From Myxococcota bacterium (GTDB taxonomy: Bacteria; Myxococcota_A; UBA9160; UBA6930), in the NCBI GenBank assembly GCA_965223705.1, contig OZ245015.1, forward strand, positions 4,160,001-4,224,000: 64,000 nucleotides of DNA, read 5' to 3'. How positions within the stretch are numbered: position 1 is the first letter of the stretch; the number at the start of each line of letters is the position of its first letter. Of this stretch, positions 4,515 to 24,905 are shown one piece after another. The position numbers were made by a program, and so were the translations under genes. Under the pieces are notes generated by a model that worked only from the letters and a program-made list of their open reading frames with translations, was not told where the DNA came from and did not search any database.

Positions 4515-5978
4515 TTAGCGAGGTGCAACGGTCCATCGGCCCGCTTCGACTTCGACGCTCCGTCCGACCCATTCTTCGGCCACCATAGAGGCCATGACGT
4601 CCGGATCGTCATTGCGCGCCACGGCGCGACGCGCGTCGCGAGTATCCACGACGACAACACCGGCGGTAGGGCCCTTGCGGTCGTGCATGACGGTGCACCC
4701 CGCGACGCGACCGGGGCCGCTGTAGTCGCTCGCGACCGGAATCTCGGCGAAACGGCGTCGCGTTTCGCCGGTGACATCCTGTGCGCGGAAACCTTCGGGG
4801 TTGGGATCACGGCCCCAGACGGCGAACCCCTGCTTCGTCAGCACTCCCGAAACGGTGCTCACCAGTCCGCGTGAACCGGGCCGCGTGCGGAGCCGCTTCG
4901 CGAGTTGTGCCGTCGCATGGATCACGAAATTGTTGAACGGACCGCCGGCGAAAGGCATGCCTCCGGTGAAGCTGCGCGCAGCACCGGGCGGGAGCTCGAG
5001 CGCTTCAGCGTAGAGATCCATCGCGACGGGGAAGCAGCTGTAGAGCTCGACCCAGTCGAGTTCTGCTGCCGTGCACTGAGCCGCCTCGAGCGCGGCACGC
5101 GCCGCGACCTCGGCGCCCGGACACCGATCGAGCTCGGCCCGCGCCGAAGTGTTCACCATGTGGTTCGCTTCGGCGCTGCTCATGGCAAACGCGAGATCGG
5201 ATGCCGGCACGCCCGCCCGCTTCGCCGCCGCGTGGGACATCAAGAGGAGCGACGAGGCCTGATCGACGCTCCAGTTCGCGACGTGGAACTTGCCGTAGGG
5301 ATCGGCGAGCGGCCGTCCTTCGAGAATCGCTTGCTGCGAGACGACTTCGTCATCCCACCCGTCGGGGTTGGCAACGGCGATCCGGGACAGCTCGTGATAC
5401 TGCGCGGCCACGTTGTTCGCGCGCTCGTCGCGCGGAATGCCTCGCGCCACGCGGTAAGCGCTTTCGAGAACGGCGTAGTAGCCCACGGCATCGTTGCCGA
5501 GCCCGGCCTCGCGTTCGTAGGCGGGGACGATTTCCTTGTCGGGTTTCCAGACAACATCCGAAGGCTCGGCGCTCTCGCGGTCGCGGAGCTCAACGCCATC
5601 GATGCGGGCGCGCAGCAAGCGATAACCAGCTTCACCGCCCGCGACCAGGGCACACTCGATTTCGCCGTCGGCGATGCGCGAGCACGCATCGGCGATCACG
5701 GTCTGCTGCGAGACACCGACGAGCGCGCTCACCGTCTTCGCGCGTTCCGCACCGACGGCAGTAGCGATCAATCCACCGGGGTCGCGGTAGCGCCAACGAC
5801 CGATGGGAACGTAGATGCGCTCGAGGTTCGAGAGAATGCGGGGGTTTCCGGCATCTTCCGCCGCGATCTTCGCCGCGCGGATCATGAGCTCGATCGGCTC
5901 ATCCGCCTCGAGCGCATTTTCTGTTCGCTGGGTCACGAGGCCCACGCCTGCGATGACCGGCGTTCTTGCTTCGTTCAT
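4515..5978 (-). CDS. Thiolase-like protein (acetyl-CoA acetyltransferase family, TLP1-like)
   Basis: PVIAGVG N-terminus, LYSCFP and TGGMPFAGGPFNN motifs, extra C-terminal domain. Confidence 0.85.
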   Translation of the reverse strand: MNEARTPVIAGVGLVTQRTENALEADEPIELMIRAAKIAAEDAGNPRILSNLERIYVPIGRWRYRDPGGLIATAVGAERAKTVSALVGVSQQTVIADACSRIADGEIECALVAGGEAGYRLLRARIDGVELRDRESAEPSDVVWKPDKEIVPAYEREAGLGNDAVGYYAVLESAYRVARGIPRDERANNVAAQYHELSRIAVANPDGWDDEVVSQQAILEGRPLADPYGKFHVANWSVDQASSLLLMSHAAAKRAGVPASDLAFAMSSAEANHMVNTSARAELDRCPGAEVAARAALEAAQCTAAELDWVELYSCFPVAMDLYAEALELPPGAARSFTGGMPFAGGPFNNFVIHATAQLAKRLRTRPGSRGLVSTVSGVLTKQGFAVWGRDPNPEGFRAQDVTGETRRRFAEIPVASDYSGPGRVAGCTVMHDRKGPTAGVVVVDTRDARRAVARNDDPDVMASMVAEEWVGRSVEVEAGRWTVAPR

Positions 5979-6027
5979 GCCGAGGAGCCCAGTACGCCGG
6001 CACCGACCACTTCGACTACTTTCACGG

Positions 6028-6597
6028 CTAACCGATCGGACACGCCGGGGCGTCGGCAACCGACTCGCGCGTGCTCGAGTCGACGTCGGTCTCGAACGTG
6101 GCGTGCACGCGGTTGACCATCGCCGCGAGTCCGACGGTCATGGCGAGCTCCAGCCGCTCCTCTTGAGAAAAAGCGGCTTCGAGCGCTGCATAGAGCTCGT
6201 CGTTCACTCGGTTGTGCCGAGTCAGCTCCTCGGAAAACCGCAACACCAAGCGGTCCTTCTCATCCAATGACTCGCAGGTTTCAGGGGCCGCCATGGCCGC
6301 CATCTCTCGATCCGTCAGTCCGACGCTCCGACCGAGCATCACGTGGGTCGGGATTCAGTAGTGACAACTGTTGACTTGCGAGGCGCGCAGGTAGGCGAGT
6401 TCGCGCAGGCGCGGCGCCAACGTGGGCTCGCCGTAGAGCGCCTCGGCGATTCCGAGAAACCCTTCCGCGGCCTTTTCGTTGTGCGCCCACAACTTGAATA
6501 CGTTGAGGACGGAGAACCCGAGTGTCTCCATGCGCTGAAAGAGTGCTCGTTGCGCGTTCGAAGCAGCGCTCTCTTCGACCAGGGGAATCCGAGACAT
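6028..6597 (-). CDS. AhpD/carboxymuconolactone decarboxylase family protein, probable selenoprotein (UGA at 6355-6357 as Sec)
   Basis: Two ORF-track pieces are in the same frame: LRELAYLRASQVNSCHY-TGA-IPTHVMLGRSVGLT; TGA sits at the second Cys of CxxC; AAAGGAG RBS. Confidence 0.88.
6322..6340 (-). promoter_or_regulatory. Bacterial SECIS-like hairpin
   Basis: GAUGCUC-GGUCG-GAGCGUC, 7-bp stem (one GU); loop begins with G, 21 nt after the UGA. Confidence 0.7.
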
Positions 6598-6653
6598 GCG
6601 TCTCCTTTCGTGGTTGCGTTGGGCCGGATCTTTCCACGCTCGGGCGGTTTCGG

Positions 6654-7505
6654 CTAGCGCCACACCGGATCTCGAACGAGATGGCAGCTGCGAAAGCGCT
6701 GATTCTCCAAATAAGAGAAAGCGAGTCTCTCACCGGCAAGGAAACGCCGGTTGAGCTCCTCCGGCGACACGTCGCCGCTCGGATAGCGGTGCAGCTCATC
6801 CACGCGGTTGAACGCCAAATTGACCAGGCGGGGGGCGGCGTAGCAGAGCATTCGGTCTGCCCAGGGCTCGCTGGCTTGCAGCTCGGGTTCGATTCTCGTG
6901 ATGTGCTGAAACACCGGAACGGAATCGAGATGCCGCCGGAAGCGCTCTGTGAGGAAGACGTTCCCGTCCACCGAGAAGCGAACTTCCCAGTCGCCGCGAG
7001 GGCACTTCGAATAGTGCGCCCAAGCGCGTCGAACGTAGGTTGCGGAGGCGCGCGGTGGGACGCGCCAGGTTCTCCCACGGCGCATGAACGGGGGACGCGT
7101 GATCCAATCCATCGGTTGGCACCAGACCACTCCCCGGTGGAGACGCAACGACAAGGCCAGGAGATCCGGTTCGGTGCGAAGGCGCTGGAACTCGCGATCG
7201 TCTGTCGAAAAGTCGCGCAGCAACACGTCGTCATCGACGAAGAACGCGAAGAACTCGCGAGGGTTGGCGTCGATGAGTGCCGTGAGCTGTCGATTGAGCG
7301 GCGCGTCTGTTTCCTTCGCAAAGCGCACCTCTGGGTGGAAGCTCGCGACGCGTTCGTATCCGCGCTCGAACTGCACGTCCGTCGCCTTGTAGAGGACGTT
7401 GATTGCGTACGCCGCGCTGTCTCGACCGTAGCGGTACATCGAGGAAAGCAGCTGGTCGAGCTGTGCCGCGCGATCGCGCGAAAAGACGATCGCGCTGAGA
7501 CTCAT
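6654..7505 (-). CDS. GT-A-fold glycosyltransferase-like protein
   Basis: IVFSRDRAAQL N-terminus, FFVDDD (DxD-like), LSLRL, SVDGNVF. Confidence 0.65.
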   Translation of the reverse strand: MSLSAIVFSRDRAAQLDQLLSSMYRYGRDSAAYAINVLYKATDVQFERGYERVASFHPEVRFAKETDAPLNRQLTALIDANPREFFAFFVDDDVLLRDFSTDDREFQRLRTEPDLLALSLRLHRGVVWCQPMDWITRPPFMRRGRTWRVPPRASATYVRRAWAHYSKCPRGDWEVRFSVDGNVFLTERFRRHLDSVPVFQHITRIEPELQASEPWADRMLCYAAPRLVNLAFNRVDELHRYPSGDVSPEELNRRFLAGERLAFSYLENQRFRSCHLVRDPVWR

Positions 7506-7540
7506 CTTCGCTTGCCGGCGGCGCTATATTTCACCGTCCC

Positions 7541-8524
7541 ATGGCCGCTGACAAAACGCCCAAGGTCACCGTCGTCGTCACGCAGCGCGAGCGCTTTAGC
7601 GGATCGCTCGAATCGCTGGATTCCCTGCTGGCCAACACTTCCGAGCCGTTTGCGCTGGTGTACGTCGATGCCGGTGGGCCGAAGAAGATGTCGACCGCGC
7701 TTCGCCGCCGTGTCGAAGCGCGCGGTGGCATGTTCCTTCGGATCGACTCGTTCCTGTCGCCCAATGCGGCGCGCAACCTCGGACTCGCCCGGGTCGAGAC
7801 ACCGTACCTCGCCTTCGTCGACAACGACGTGCGGTTCCGCGAAGGCTGGCTCGAAGAGCTCGTCGCCTGCGCCGAAGACACGGGTGCCGTCCTCGTTTCT
7901 CCGATCACGTGTCAGGGTGAACCCCTTCACTCGGAGATCCATTGTCTGGCGGGCACGACCTGTATCGAGATCGACGAGAAAGGCCGACGCGTCCTCAGGG
8001 ATTGGGCCGGCCGCCAAGGGGAGCCGCTCTCGTCGTTTACCGGTGGGGACGAGCCCTTCGAAATGGAGACGGTCGAATACCATACGCTCCTCGCGCGAAC
8101 GGCGTTCTTCGAGGAGCATGGGCCCCTCGACGAGAAGCTTCCGGCATTGCACGAGCACGCCGATCTCTCGCTTTGCGTTCGCGAACAGGGCGGTCGGATC
8201 TTTCTCGCACCGCGTTCGGTCGTGACGTACGTCGGTCCGAAATCCTTCACTCTCCGCGACGCTCGCTTCTTCCTGCTGCGTTGGAGCGACGCCTGGCTTC
8301 TCCAGAGCATCGAGCGCATGGAGGAGAAATGGCAACTCGATCGCTCGCCCGAGTTCGGGGCGTTGCTCCGCGGCAACGGCTGGCAGCGGCGGCAGCTGGT
8401 ACTGCGCGGATTGGCCAACCGGGTTCCCGCCGGGCGGTGCAAGGAAGCCGCGAAATCGCTTCTCTTTCGAATCGACCACTGGGTCGGGCGAGCGAAGGGC
8501 CTTACCACAGACTCGCACCGGTAG
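7541..8524 (+). CDS. Glycosyltransferase family 2
   Basis: VTVVV...YVDAG...ARNLG...AFVDND (DxD)...HEHADL. Confidence 0.88.
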   Translation: MAADKTPKVTVVVTQRERFSGSLESLDSLLANTSEPFALVYVDAGGPKKMSTALRRRVEARGGMFLRIDSFLSPNAARNLGLARVETPYLAFVDNDVRFREGWLEELVACAEDTGAVLVSPITCQGEPLHSEIHCLAGTTCIEIDEKGRRVLRDWAGRQGEPLSSFTGGDEPFEMETVEYHTLLARTAFFEEHGPLDEKLPALHEHADLSLCVREQGGRIFLAPRSVVTYVGPKSFTLRDARFFLLRWSDAWLLQSIERMEEKWQLDRSPEFGALLRGNGWQRRQLVLRGLANRVPAGRCKEAAKSLLFRIDHWVGRAKGLTTDSHR

Positions 8525-9401
8525 TGCGCGCGCCGCGTTTCTGCGCGAGCGATCGCACGCCGTCGCGAGCACGGCGCTCGATCGCCCGCGGCAGGACCGC
8601 CAGCAACCGCCCCGCCATCGCGATGCGCTCGGGCCACGGAACGCTGAAGTCGGGATGCTCGCTCGCCGCGTACAGACTTGTGAAATCCCGAAAGCAATCC
8701 CAGAAGCGCAGCTCGCGTCGGCTGAAGCCCTCACCCGCATAGTGAATAAAGTGCGCACAGCGCCGGACGCGAGCATCGCGGCCAAAAAGATTCATCCAGT
8801 TGAACTCGCCCGCGAGCGGCCGAATCTCGAAATCGTGACGGGCGATCAGCAGGTTGAAGTAGGTCTGGTCCCAGTGGTCGTCGATGAGGACCGCGCGCAG
8901 GAACTCCTCTTCGACGAGGTGATCGAGAAACGTCGCATCTCGGCCGAACAACATGACACCGGAGTTGTAGTAGACAGGCCGGCCTTCGTGGCGCGGCCAG
9001 TTCGGCAGTGGCCCGAGAGCCTCGCACAACGTCGCGACGTCGAGGGATCGATCGGCGTGGCGGCCCTCTTCGAGCAGGTAGCAAGCTGCGGCGTTCGGGT
9101 GCGTTTCGAAGATGTCCGGCGCCTCGGGCGCGATGAGAACGTCGCCGTCGACGTAGAGCACCCGCTCGTAGTCGCGAAGCAGGCTCCGTACGTGGATTTT
9201 CTCGAGGACGGCGGAGGCGGCCGGATGCCCTAGCGGCGGGAACCGTCGCGACACGGAGGCCTCGCGGCACGCGATGAAATCCGCGCCGATCCGCGCCGCG
9301 TAGTGGCGCATCGCGGGCAGCGTGTAGCGAAAGATCGGATCGGAGCCGATCGCGACCGTATAAATCGCGCAGCGGCTGGACGGTTCGGCTCGCACGGTCA
9401 A
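8502..9401 (-). CDS. Glycosyltransferase (GT8/GT34-like)
   Basis: VLYVDGD, YNSGVM, DQTYFN, FIHYAG motifs; start uncertain. Confidence 0.82.
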   Translation of the reverse strand: MTVRAEPSSRCAIYTVAIGSDPIFRYTLPAMRHYAARIGADFIACREASVSRRFPPLGHPAASAVLEKIHVRSLLRDYERVLYVDGDVLIAPEAPDIFETHPNAAACYLLEEGRHADRSLDVATLCEALGPLPNWPRHEGRPVYYNSGVMLFGRDATFLDHLVEEEFLRAVLIDDHWDQTYFNLLIARHDFEIRPLAGEFNWMNLFGRDARVRRCAHFIHYAGEGFSRRELRFWDCFRDFTSLYAASEHPDFSVPWPERIAMAGRLLAVLPRAIERRARDGVRSLAQKRGARTTGASLW

Positions 9402-22710: not shown

Positions 22711-24699
22711 TCAGTAGCGGAAGCGAAAGCCCGCGTACGCACCGAAGCCCGGGGATTCGTAGCCCGCGATTTCGTGATAGTCGTCGTCGAGCAGGTTCTC
22801 GATGCGTCCGAACATCTCAATGCGATCGCTCAACTGGTACGAGCCAGTGAGCTGCACCAGCGTGTAGGCACCGAGTCTGACTTCTTCGTTGGTCGAGAAA
22901 TCCGTGTCCAGCTGACTTCCGTTGTAGAGGACGGCGAGGTTGATGTTCGCCCTGTCTCGCAGAAAACGCAGATTCGCTGCTACGGAGCCGGTGTGTTTGG
23001 GTCGCCGAATCTCGTGTTGCGTCTCCACGACGCTCAACTTGTCCGAAGACAACGTCGTCTGATCCGAATCGACGTAGCTGTAGGTGGCTGTCAGATCGAA
23101 CCCGGTCCACGGCACGATACGAAGGGTGGCTTCGAATCCATCTCGTTCGCTCTCCCCGATCACGTTGTCTGCCGTGAAAGCCGGATCTCCGCCCGTCGAA
23201 ACAAAACCGTCGATCTCGTCCTCGAGGTCATTCTCGAAATACGTAAGACCGAAAGTCGCTGCCCCGTTGAGGAGCTCTTGTTCGAATCCGATGTCCCATC
23301 CTTCACTCGTCTCGGGTTTTAAGTTCGGATTACCCCGAAAGAAGAAGCCGGGACCGAAGAAATTCGGCAGCTCACCAAACAAATCGAACATACCGGGGTT
23401 CTTGACGCCTTCGCCCCAGCTCGCATGCAAGCGAGTGCTCTCCCAAGGGAGGACATAGCTCAGTGTCGCTCGGTATGTCGTCGCGTTGTCGAAATCATCG
23501 TTGTTGTCCCTTCGCACGCTTCCGGAGAGGAAAAGGGTTTCGTCGAAGTTGACCCGATACTCCCCGATCCAACTGTTCTCGCGGAGCGTCTGAGTTTGTT
23601 CGGTCCCTAGAGAACCGACGAATTGCAAACGTCCGTGCTCATAGGCGCCCGTCACAACGTGGGACAGGCCTCCGGCTTCGAACACGCCGGTCGTTTGATA
23701 GCGATAGCGGCGCTTATCTCCCCGGGTCTCCGAGAGCAGGAACCCATCGTCACGCTCGTCGCGTTTCGTATCGAGTTTCGAGATGTCTACGCGATGGGTC
23801 CACCGACCCTCCAAGAGACTTACTTCCGCCCACGCGCGTCCGGTTCCGTGTTCGCTGACCGAGTTCTCGCGCGTATTGACGATCAAACCGAAGGTAGACG
23901 GCCCGACAAAATCCTGTGTATCTCGTTCGTGATCCTCGCGGCTGTAGCGGACGGAACCACCGACTCGGAAGAACGGTGCCAACCGCGCGGAGCCCCGAAG
24001 GTTGTAGGTATGGTTGCGATAGCCGTCCCGCTCGCCGCCAGTGGGCGAATGGCTGATACCGTGGGTATCGAGAAAATTGATGGAGCCCGTCAACCGCCAG
24101 TCGACCCCACCTCCACCGACAATGGCGTGAGCGCGGCGCGTACCGAAAGTGCCAGCTTCAACGAGCGCTCCTGCGTGAACGCCTTCGGGAAGCTCTCGAG
24201 TTACGATATTGATGACTCCACCGACCGCCTCGCTGCCGTAGAGCGCGCTTTGTGAGCCGCGCAAGACTTCGATTCGCTCGATGTCATCGGCGAGTAAATT
24301 GCCGAAATCAAACTCGTCATTCAGCGCGGGATCTGTCACTTCGACACCGTCGATCATGACGAGGGTGTGGTTGCCTTCCGCGCCTCGAATGCGGACCTGG
24401 GTGAGCGAGCCAAAACTACCGGTTCGGCTCACCGCGACACCGGGGACCTCGCGCAAGAGATCAGAAGCGAAAGGCACGCCTCGGCGCTCGATTTCCTCAC
24501 GGTCGATCACCGTGACCGAACTTCCGAGCTCGATCACGGCGCGCGGCGTGAGGGAGCCGATACCGACGCGCTCGTCGGACGCGAGCGAAGCATGAGAAAC
24601 GACAGAAGACAGGACGACGCAAAGAGGGAGCCAGTGCGCTCGGCGCACGGCATGCACTAGGGACAAGCGATCCACCTCGGCGCCGATTCCGAGCGCCAT
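22711..24699 (-). CDS. btuB: TonB-dependent cobalamin receptor
   Basis: Plug domain (LLREVPGV, IRG, VMIDGV, IERIEVLRGSQSALYGSEAVGGVINI), C-terminal aromatic residue; downstream of a cobalamin riboswitch. Confidence 0.9.
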   Translation of the reverse strand: MALGIGAEVDRLSLVHAVRRAHWLPLCVVLSSVVSHASLASDERVGIGSLTPRAVIELGSSVTVIDREEIERRGVPFASDLLREVPGVAVSRTGSFGSLTQVRIRGAEGNHTLVMIDGVEVTDPALNDEFDFGNLLADDIERIEVLRGSQSALYGSEAVGGVINIVTRELPEGVHAGALVEAGTFGTRRAHAIVGGGGVDWRLTGSINFLDTHGISHSPTGGERDGYRNHTYNLRGSARLAPFFRVGGSVRYSREDHERDTQDFVGPSTFGLIVNTRENSVSEHGTGRAWAEVSLLEGRWTHRVDISKLDTKRDERDDGFLLSETRGDKRRYRYQTTGVFEAGGLSHVVTGAYEHGRLQFVGSLGTEQTQTLRENSWIGEYRVNFDETLFLSGSVRRDNNDDFDNATTYRATLSYVLPWESTRLHASWGEGVKNPGMFDLFGELPNFFGPGFFFRGNPNLKPETSEGWDIGFEQELLNGAATFGLTYFENDLEDEIDGFVSTGGDPAFTADNVIGESERDGFEATLRIVPWTGFDLTATYSYVDSDQTTLSSDKLSVVETQHEIRRPKHTGSVAANLRFLRDRANINLAVLYNGSQLDTDFSTNEEVRLGAYTLVQLTGSYQLSDRIEMFGRIENLLDDDYHEIAGYESPGFGAYAGFRFRY

Positions 24700-24713: not shown

Positions 24714-24905
24714 AGGCCCGGTCTTCTGGCTCCCGGTTCAGCCTCCCGCGATGCCTTCCCGGGTGTGGCGCAACTTGTCGCCTACCCAGTGGCTGTGTCT
24801 CGCGGTCGTCCCCGGTTACAGCGGCGGTCCCGCGCCGGTTTTTCACCGGCTTCCCGCGGCGCGCCCGAGCGCGCCGGCTCCGGGCCTTTCCCGGAGCGCT
24901 TCCTC
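24714..24905 (-). ncRNA. Cobalamin (AdoCbl) riboswitch
   Basis: Minus strand: GGGAAGCCGGTGAAAAACCGGCGCGGGACCGCCGCTGTAA...GCCACTGGG...CCCGGGAAGG...GAGCCAGAAGACC (B12 box). Confidence 0.93.

Follow-up and report, generated by a model that had tools for sequence, protein, structure and literature searches.

Two apparent open reading frame fragments on the minus strand of the window (the whole stretch of 64,000 nucleotides analyzed here) belong to a single gene for a small redox protein of the AhpD-like kind, whose UGA81 is very likely decoded as selenocysteine (Sec). We infer the decoding of UGA81 as Sec with near certainty. Taken as a whole, the best explanation, held with high confidence, is a single CxxU enzyme gene with hairpin-directed Sec insertion, whose product likely reduces peroxides or oxidized partner proteins.

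A single reading frame with an in-frame TGA

Positions 6597-6028 of the minus strand form a single frame of 189 codons, which starts with an ATG at 6597 and is closed by a TAG stop ending at 6028. The sole internal stop is the TGA at 6357-6355 (codon 81), in the motif C78-H-Y-[TGA]-I-P-T-H85 (CHYU, with U81). Under the standard code the gene falls into one fragment at 6663..6355 (102 aa if counted from a GTG further upstream, 80 aa if counted from the ATG) and another at 6342..6028 (104 aa). Translation confirmed the preliminary description in that the two fragments are one frame broken only by the TGA at 6355-6357; the C-H-Y-[TGA] context and the 189-aa product given there were also found, on the minus strand, a strand it had left unstated. 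The features of the gene are as follows.

6028..6597, minus strand: AhpD-like/CMD gene (P0002), 189 aa with the TGA as Sec, assigned from the frame, PF02627, TIGR00778 and the predicted fold
6602..6608, minus strand: Shine-Dalgarno-like AAAGGAG, 4 nt before the ATG, read from the sequence
6355..6357, minus strand: in-frame TGA, codon 81, almost certainly selenocysteine, aligned to PA0269 Cys51 and unchanged in contigs of 4 runs
6343..6402, minus strand: AhpD proton-relay hairpin with Glu66, Cys78, Tyr80, Sec81 and His85, from ungapped alignment to PA0269
6321..6341, minus strand: candidate bacterial SECIS with a stem of 7-8 bp and a GGUCG loop that begins 21 nt past the TGA, from folding and conservation
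6040..6042, minus strand: Cys186 in the C-terminal tail (ACPIG), a possible third redox residue, from tail Cys counts; tail pLDDT 61

An assembly error as the origin of the TGA was rejected: the covering contigs of 4/4 runs agree and show it without difference, although two of them extend over the entire stretch and are possibly its source. An extra cysteine, C108 (window 6276-6274, minus strand), is kept in many close homologues, as judged by eye.

Protein family, predicted fold and catalytic relay

The PF02627 match of the read-through product covers residues 43-104 and crosses the TGA (E 2.5e-13). Searched alone, the N-terminal half matches PF02627 as far as its final residue; the C-terminal half gave no profile match on its own. 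The only model passed was TIGR00778 (AhpD core domain), with 39.4 bits over a cut-off of 27.8. The product scored 62.5 bits against TIGR01926 (cut-off 81.8), and 25, 44 and 14 bits against NF041238, NF053654 and NF041047 (cut-offs 175, 310 and 110, respectively); the subfamily falls below the cut-off of every curated full-length NCBIfam model.

A structure model, built with U modeled as C from an alignment of 87 rows, showed one fold across the TGA with a pLDDT of 95 and a low-confidence C-terminal tail (pLDDT 61). Foldseek matched it to 3c1l, 2prr, 2oyo and 6k40 with a probability of 1.0 and TM values of about 0.8. Both halves keep homology and are predicted to form one confident all-helical AhpD-like/CMD fold.

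An ungapped alignment to PA0269 covers Glu66, Cys78, Tyr80, U81 and His85 and places U81 opposite Cys51. The relay of that protein, as described in PMC3141380, consists of Glu36, Cys48, Tyr50, Cys51 and His55, and the spacing in our product is identical, as in an AhpD-like protein. Gamma-carboxymuconolactone decarboxylase, which PMC3141380 describes as having neither CxxC nor the relay, is not the identity of the product: the relay is present, and gamma-CMD structures rank far lower. Because the characterized relatives share 19-26% identity, they leave the substrate unconstrained.

A tail cysteine such as Cys186 is found in 94/104 C-terminal halves of the subfamily versus 2/46 CxxC homologues, and in a second Sec subfamily in 38/38 halves versus 0/8 full-length non-Trp hits, counts that are confounded by kinship. 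As a general rule, a Sec-specific adaptation was rejected, since a Cys-only CxFC subfamily has a tail cysteine in 105/119 members and 4/9 Sec paralogues are without one. No report of an AhpD with selenocysteine plus a C-terminal Cys was found in the literature searched.

Conservation of the TGA in homologues

The TGA and the hairpin are kept in 7/7 close homologous loci (62-69% identity), which together with the host genome make up about three independent lineages; the remaining 2 loci returned by the search (31-32% identity) carry TGC at the site. A search for near protein homologues, restricted to lengths of 103-331, gave 108 hits: 95 C-terminal halves and 7 N-terminal halves ending at CxY (102 split halves, whose split at a TGA is an assumption outside the 7 close loci examined as DNA), and 6 hits spanning the site, none of them with CxxC. 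Two of the 108 cross the site with another residue, W in P0004 and G in P0053, as read from the protein sequences. Among 150 distant full-length representatives, 50 have CxxC (at most 44% identity) and most others Glu, with CxxC the commonest equivalent. The nearest Cys forms (P0117, CHYCIPTH, 37% identity) branch as sister group in a quickly built tree, with a support of 93. The column is thus TGA in the close loci and most commonly Cys in the distant ones, as had been anticipated, and not a non-Cys residue lacking a conserved TGA. The adjacent GenBank pairs MFT4583286/7 and MDA0823889/90 are split versions of the gene, which bears out the expectation that annotation pipelines would divide it.

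Both selA and selB were found in 2/3 homologue genomes; the third (G420, possibly incomplete) gave no selA/selB match and only a marginal 49-bit hit of the tRNA-Sec family. No orthologue was detected at E 1e-30 among 400 genomes of the phylum, and therefore the distribution is patchy; the best hits in 40 relatives were at most 39% identical. Judging from these sequences, the subfamily is apparently almost Sec-only.

A candidate SECIS element downstream of the TGA

In the hairpin, positions 6340-6334 pair with 6328-6322, giving a core of 7 bp, or 8 bp when a flanking U-G pair is counted, that closes a 5-nt loop, GGUCG; the folding energy is -11.3 kcal/mol, and the pairs have probabilities of about 0.77. 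The stem begins at +14/+15 and the loop lies 21 nt from the TGA. The 7-bp hairpin with a G-led loop that the preliminary description had noticed is therefore real, but the 21 nt it gave as the distance to the hairpin is the distance to the loop. According to the bSECIS model as quoted in PMC13188914, the loop has 3-9 nt, the stem 4-16 bp, a G stands in the first two loop positions, the distance from the UGA is 16-37 nt and the MFE is at most -7.5. With its 5-nt loop, 7-8 bp, GG, 21 nt and the folding energy given above, the hairpin agrees with all four bSECIS constraints quoted there, a fit judged from the constraints as quoted.

Taken alone, the hairpin is weak to modest evidence for a SECIS. 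The folding energy of the region is unremarkable (z-score 0.12), and among 5000 random TGAs a stem of at least 8 bp follows in 3% and one of at least 6 bp in 15%. The 7 core pairs are kept in 7/7 distinct alignment rows; a single G-C pair has become G-U, and neither covariation nor a compensatory change occurs among these rows. One loop variant, AGUCG, still has a G as its second nucleotide. Across three lineages with GC3 values of 78, 58 and 45%, 4/5 conserved degenerate codons are identical within the hairpin versus 4/64 outside it (p 4e-4, 120 codons compared). Synonymous constraint appears limited to the hairpin.

Nine CxxU paralogues and the wider set of candidate selenoproteins

Searching the genome with an iterated profile gave 15 AhpD/CMD paralogues once 2 additional weak rows were set aside; nine carry CxxU and four CxxC. 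In 9/9 CxxU paralogues a stem of 6-9 bp, with a G in the first two loop positions, was found at +17 to +26, whereas in the six Cys/Trp paralogues the stem is at most 4 bp and the hairpin is missing from all (0/6 vs 9/9, Fisher p 2e-4). A compact SECIS pattern internal to the genome emerges, a stem of 6-9 bp and a G-led loop at +17 to +26, for which nine paralogues serve as positive controls and six as negative ones. The eight further CxxU copies are located as follows.

C1: 4259322, 3205240, 3328292, 3385135, 1586431, 1293633, 2492127, 2352216: AhpD/CMD paralogues with CxxU and hairpin

Two of these eight pass NF041238 and one passes TIGR01926. A recent duplication of the nine paralogues is unsupported, as a quickly built tree with weak support scatters them over several distant branches. 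The AhpD-like candidate at 3205240 stands 1.4 kb from a BCP-type peroxiredoxin (TPGU) at C1:3203801 on the same strand, and the one at 2492127 adjoins a WAxxUGC candidate at 2493300 in divergent orientation.

A scan that combined the coding score on both sides of a TGA, a hairpin or Cys motif, and HMM checks gave at least 31 candidate selenoproteins in the genome: 9 AhpD-like, 5 PrdB-like, 3 UGSC, 3 peroxiredoxin, 3 Prx-like and 3 rhodanese candidates, and one each of the WAxxUGC, thioredoxin-like, ArsC-like, OsmC-like and MerB-like kinds. The number 31 is a lower bound, the crude filter having missed at least one known paralogue; many of the 31 score under curated cut-offs, and further candidates were discarded on inspection by eye, their TGAs being taken for ordinary stops. 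A record selenoproteome was rejected, at least 31 candidates being below the 57 and 63 that PMC13188914 gives as records.

Several of these candidates have features of their own. The five PrdB-like UxxC/UxxD candidates (C1: 2803729, 2137623, 150121, 3213240, 2849225) all score under the PrdB cut-off; three share the GGUCG loop of the gene described here, and in one the best Pfam stretch stops just before U. The MerB (alkylmercury lyase)-like candidate at C1:4501707 (L088:90-698, minus strand) has a 6-bp hairpin and an in-frame TGA that falls within the Pfam match, and the OsmC-like candidate at C1:3447690 (L071:101-568, plus strand) has a TGA at the position of the second cysteine and a 7-bp hairpin. 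A rhodanese with C-L-U at C1:1887603 (L079:98-1141, minus strand) has a C-terminal region that by eye resembles a class III nucleotide cyclase; its Pfam match is to rhodanese only.

Sec machinery and genetic code of the host

The host genome is 95% complete in 2 contigs. Profile searches returned tRNA-Sec (78 bits), selA (486 bits), selB (321 bits) and selD (270 bits), all over their cut-offs, so that the full set of sel genes (selC being the tRNA-Sec) whose absence would have spoken against the preliminary description is present. Within C1:22501-27564, selB and selD lie about 2 kb apart, with selA and tRNA-Sec elsewhere; selD sits at the 3' end of a long frame (736 aa open) and is possibly fused. 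SelD and the best FdhA match carry Cys, not Sec. Since 958/2486 confident ORFs end in TGA as an ordinary stop, the codon is not globally reassigned, and the only tRNA in the genome with a UCA anticodon is of the Sec type. A 93-nt call 'tRNA-?(Glu|SeC)' at C1:4419161 was disregarded, being marked as a possible pseudogene and apparently located within a coding frame.

Genomic context

On the same strand, the gene lies 49 nt upstream of genes for a thiolase-like protein, an enoyl-CoA hydratase and an acyl-CoA dehydrogenase. Neither ahpC/ahpF nor a lipoyl partner was found among the nine neighbors scanned. A conserved operon was rejected, as the thiolase-like and acyl-CoA dehydrogenase neighbors were unmatched in 11 loci tested; the matches there were limited to an enoyl-CoA hydratase-like protein (6 loci, 30-33%) and a GFA-like protein (2 loci). 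Homologues also lie near acyl-CoA enzymes, but different ones. The acyl-CoA neighborhood is a weak hint at lipid-related peroxides. No sigma-70 promoter match was obtained within 5900-7000. Three upstream ORFs (6654-9401, minus strand) appear glycosyltransferase-like, with one weak GT8 hit and two without a Pfam hit. Further along the window, a cobalamin riboswitch (RF00174, 72 bits, 24719-24856, minus strand) precedes a 662-aa ORF (24699..22711).

Proposed function and alternative readings

Two readings of the TGA do without selenocysteine. The gene could be a pseudogene broken by a nonsense codon, or a pair of real small genes encoding two proteins that come together as a split AhpD. In favor of this, translation might start again at an in-frame GTG/ATG (6342/6339), each half has its own database entries, and one homologue genome has no detectable sel genes. 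Against this, the TGA stands at the catalytic column in 7/7 loci and in 9 paralogues with hairpins, and the five codons from the TGA to the restart stay in frame and retain His85. A split gene would moreover have lost the catalytic residue, and no SD-like purine run precedes the restart, so that we regard either version as very improbable. An alternative code that reads TGA as Trp (or Gly), giving a CxxW protein, would fit the full-length CHYW database entries P0004, P0262, P0266 and P0267, and P0053 with G. The W entries all come from one source (JGI), however, and joining the split entries P0259 and P0015 through W plus five residues reproduces P0267; the W entries are therefore likely code-4 gene calls, an explanation that is inferred for P0004 and leaves P0053 (Gly) unexplained. 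With TGA as an ordinary stop in this genome and its only UCA-anticodon tRNA of the Sec type, such a reading is scarcely credible.

For the selenoprotein itself we propose that SelB would bind the G-led loop and deliver Sec-tRNA at UGA81. The roles of the residues of Mycobacterium tuberculosis AhpD, with its two cysteines, are the basis of the proposed chemistry of Sec81 and Cys78. By analogy, the Glu66-His85 relay would stabilize the Sec81 selenolate, which would attack a peroxide or disulfide; Cys78 would then resolve the intermediate to a Se-S bond, to be re-reduced by a lipoyl/NADH or thioredoxin system. Speculatively, Cys186 on its mobile tail might shuttle electrons to the Se-S bond. Among the relatives, PA0269 is described as having weak Cys-dependent peroxidase activity (PMC3141380), and PMC8945050 reports that a Deinococcus radiodurans mutant of an AhpD-like protein is sensitive to H2O2 and that AhpD is regenerated by the lipoyl/NADH system. 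On this analogy we favor, with some reserve, peroxide or disulfide reduction as the job of the enzyme (a selenol peroxidase or disulfide reductase).

The same selenoprotein might, in place of peroxide defense, carry out a selenol-mediated reductive dehalogenation resembling that of the tetrabromopyrrole debrominase Bmp8, or reduce another small molecule. Reductive dehalogenation by Bmp8 is chemically akin to that of deiodinases. Bmp8 was hit by sequence (E 8e-5), by profile (E 5e-25) and by fold (6ohi/6ohj, TM 0.76-0.80, with an AhpD-like core), and nine divergent Sec paralogues suggest different substrates. It ranks under peroxidase-related structures, however, at 19-22% identity, and neither halogenase nor bmp genes occur among the nine neighbors scanned. 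We consider this reading improbable and retain peroxide or disulfide reduction.

Relation to known systems and significance

AhpD-like CxxU selenoproteins are a known kind. PMC1088965 gives 27 sequences from the Sargasso Sea in 2005, PMC2398784 gives 299 ('AhpD-like 1') and 70 from GOS in 2008, and AhpD-like selenoproteins are listed in PMC13188914 and in BSepDB (PMC13326102). Like our product, the catalogued proteins (COG2128/TIGR01926), as far as these sources describe them, carry CxxU in the AhpD core, are about 180-190 aa long, and have a bSECIS-type hairpin downstream and TIGR01926 as the best model; our product differs in scoring under the TIGR01926 cut-off, and the CHYUIPTH subfamily may already be among the catalogued sequences. 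NF041238 (CFYUT), NF053654 (YciW-related) and NF041047 (GSU3128) share the fold and the CxxU column, and the two paralogues mentioned above belong to the first, but the gene product belongs to none of the three. PA0269 (2o4d), the AhpD-like protein of D. radiodurans (6k40) and M. tuberculosis AhpD have the same Glu-Cys-Tyr-Cys-His relay with identical spacing, and 2o4d and 6k40 share the all-helical fold (TM 0.68-0.80); in our product, by contrast, Sec replaces the second Cys, a C-terminal Cys tail is added, identity is about 25% and no ahpC adjoins. What seems new, going by sequence comparison, is an apparently almost Sec-only subfamily under all curated full-length cut-offs, in a genome with nine CxxU paralogues and at least 31 candidate selenoproteins. 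In the literature searched we found neither a study of the CHYUIPTH subfamily or of a nine-copy AhpD expansion nor a biochemical study of an AhpD-fold selenoprotein.

Reading through the TGA restores a gene found in pieces in about 100 clusters of the public databases; the gain is mainly one of annotation, and the understanding of Sec decoding is left unchanged. With nine Sec and four CxxC paralogues, the genome is well suited to testing the contribution of Sec to the AhpD fold. A further proposal, which we consider improbable, is that the gene represents an AhpD subfamily that no model covers, that is almost Sec-only and that uses a three-centre relay of Cys-Sec and tail Cys, and that the AhpD fold is the main selenoprotein family of this genome (nine divergent CxxU paralogues among at least 31 candidates), in which SelD and the best FdhA match have Cys. 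If this were true, AhpD-fold selenoenzymes would be substrate-specialized catabolic reductases, possibly dehalogenases and a bacterial counterpart of deiodinase chemistry, and not generic peroxide scavengers.
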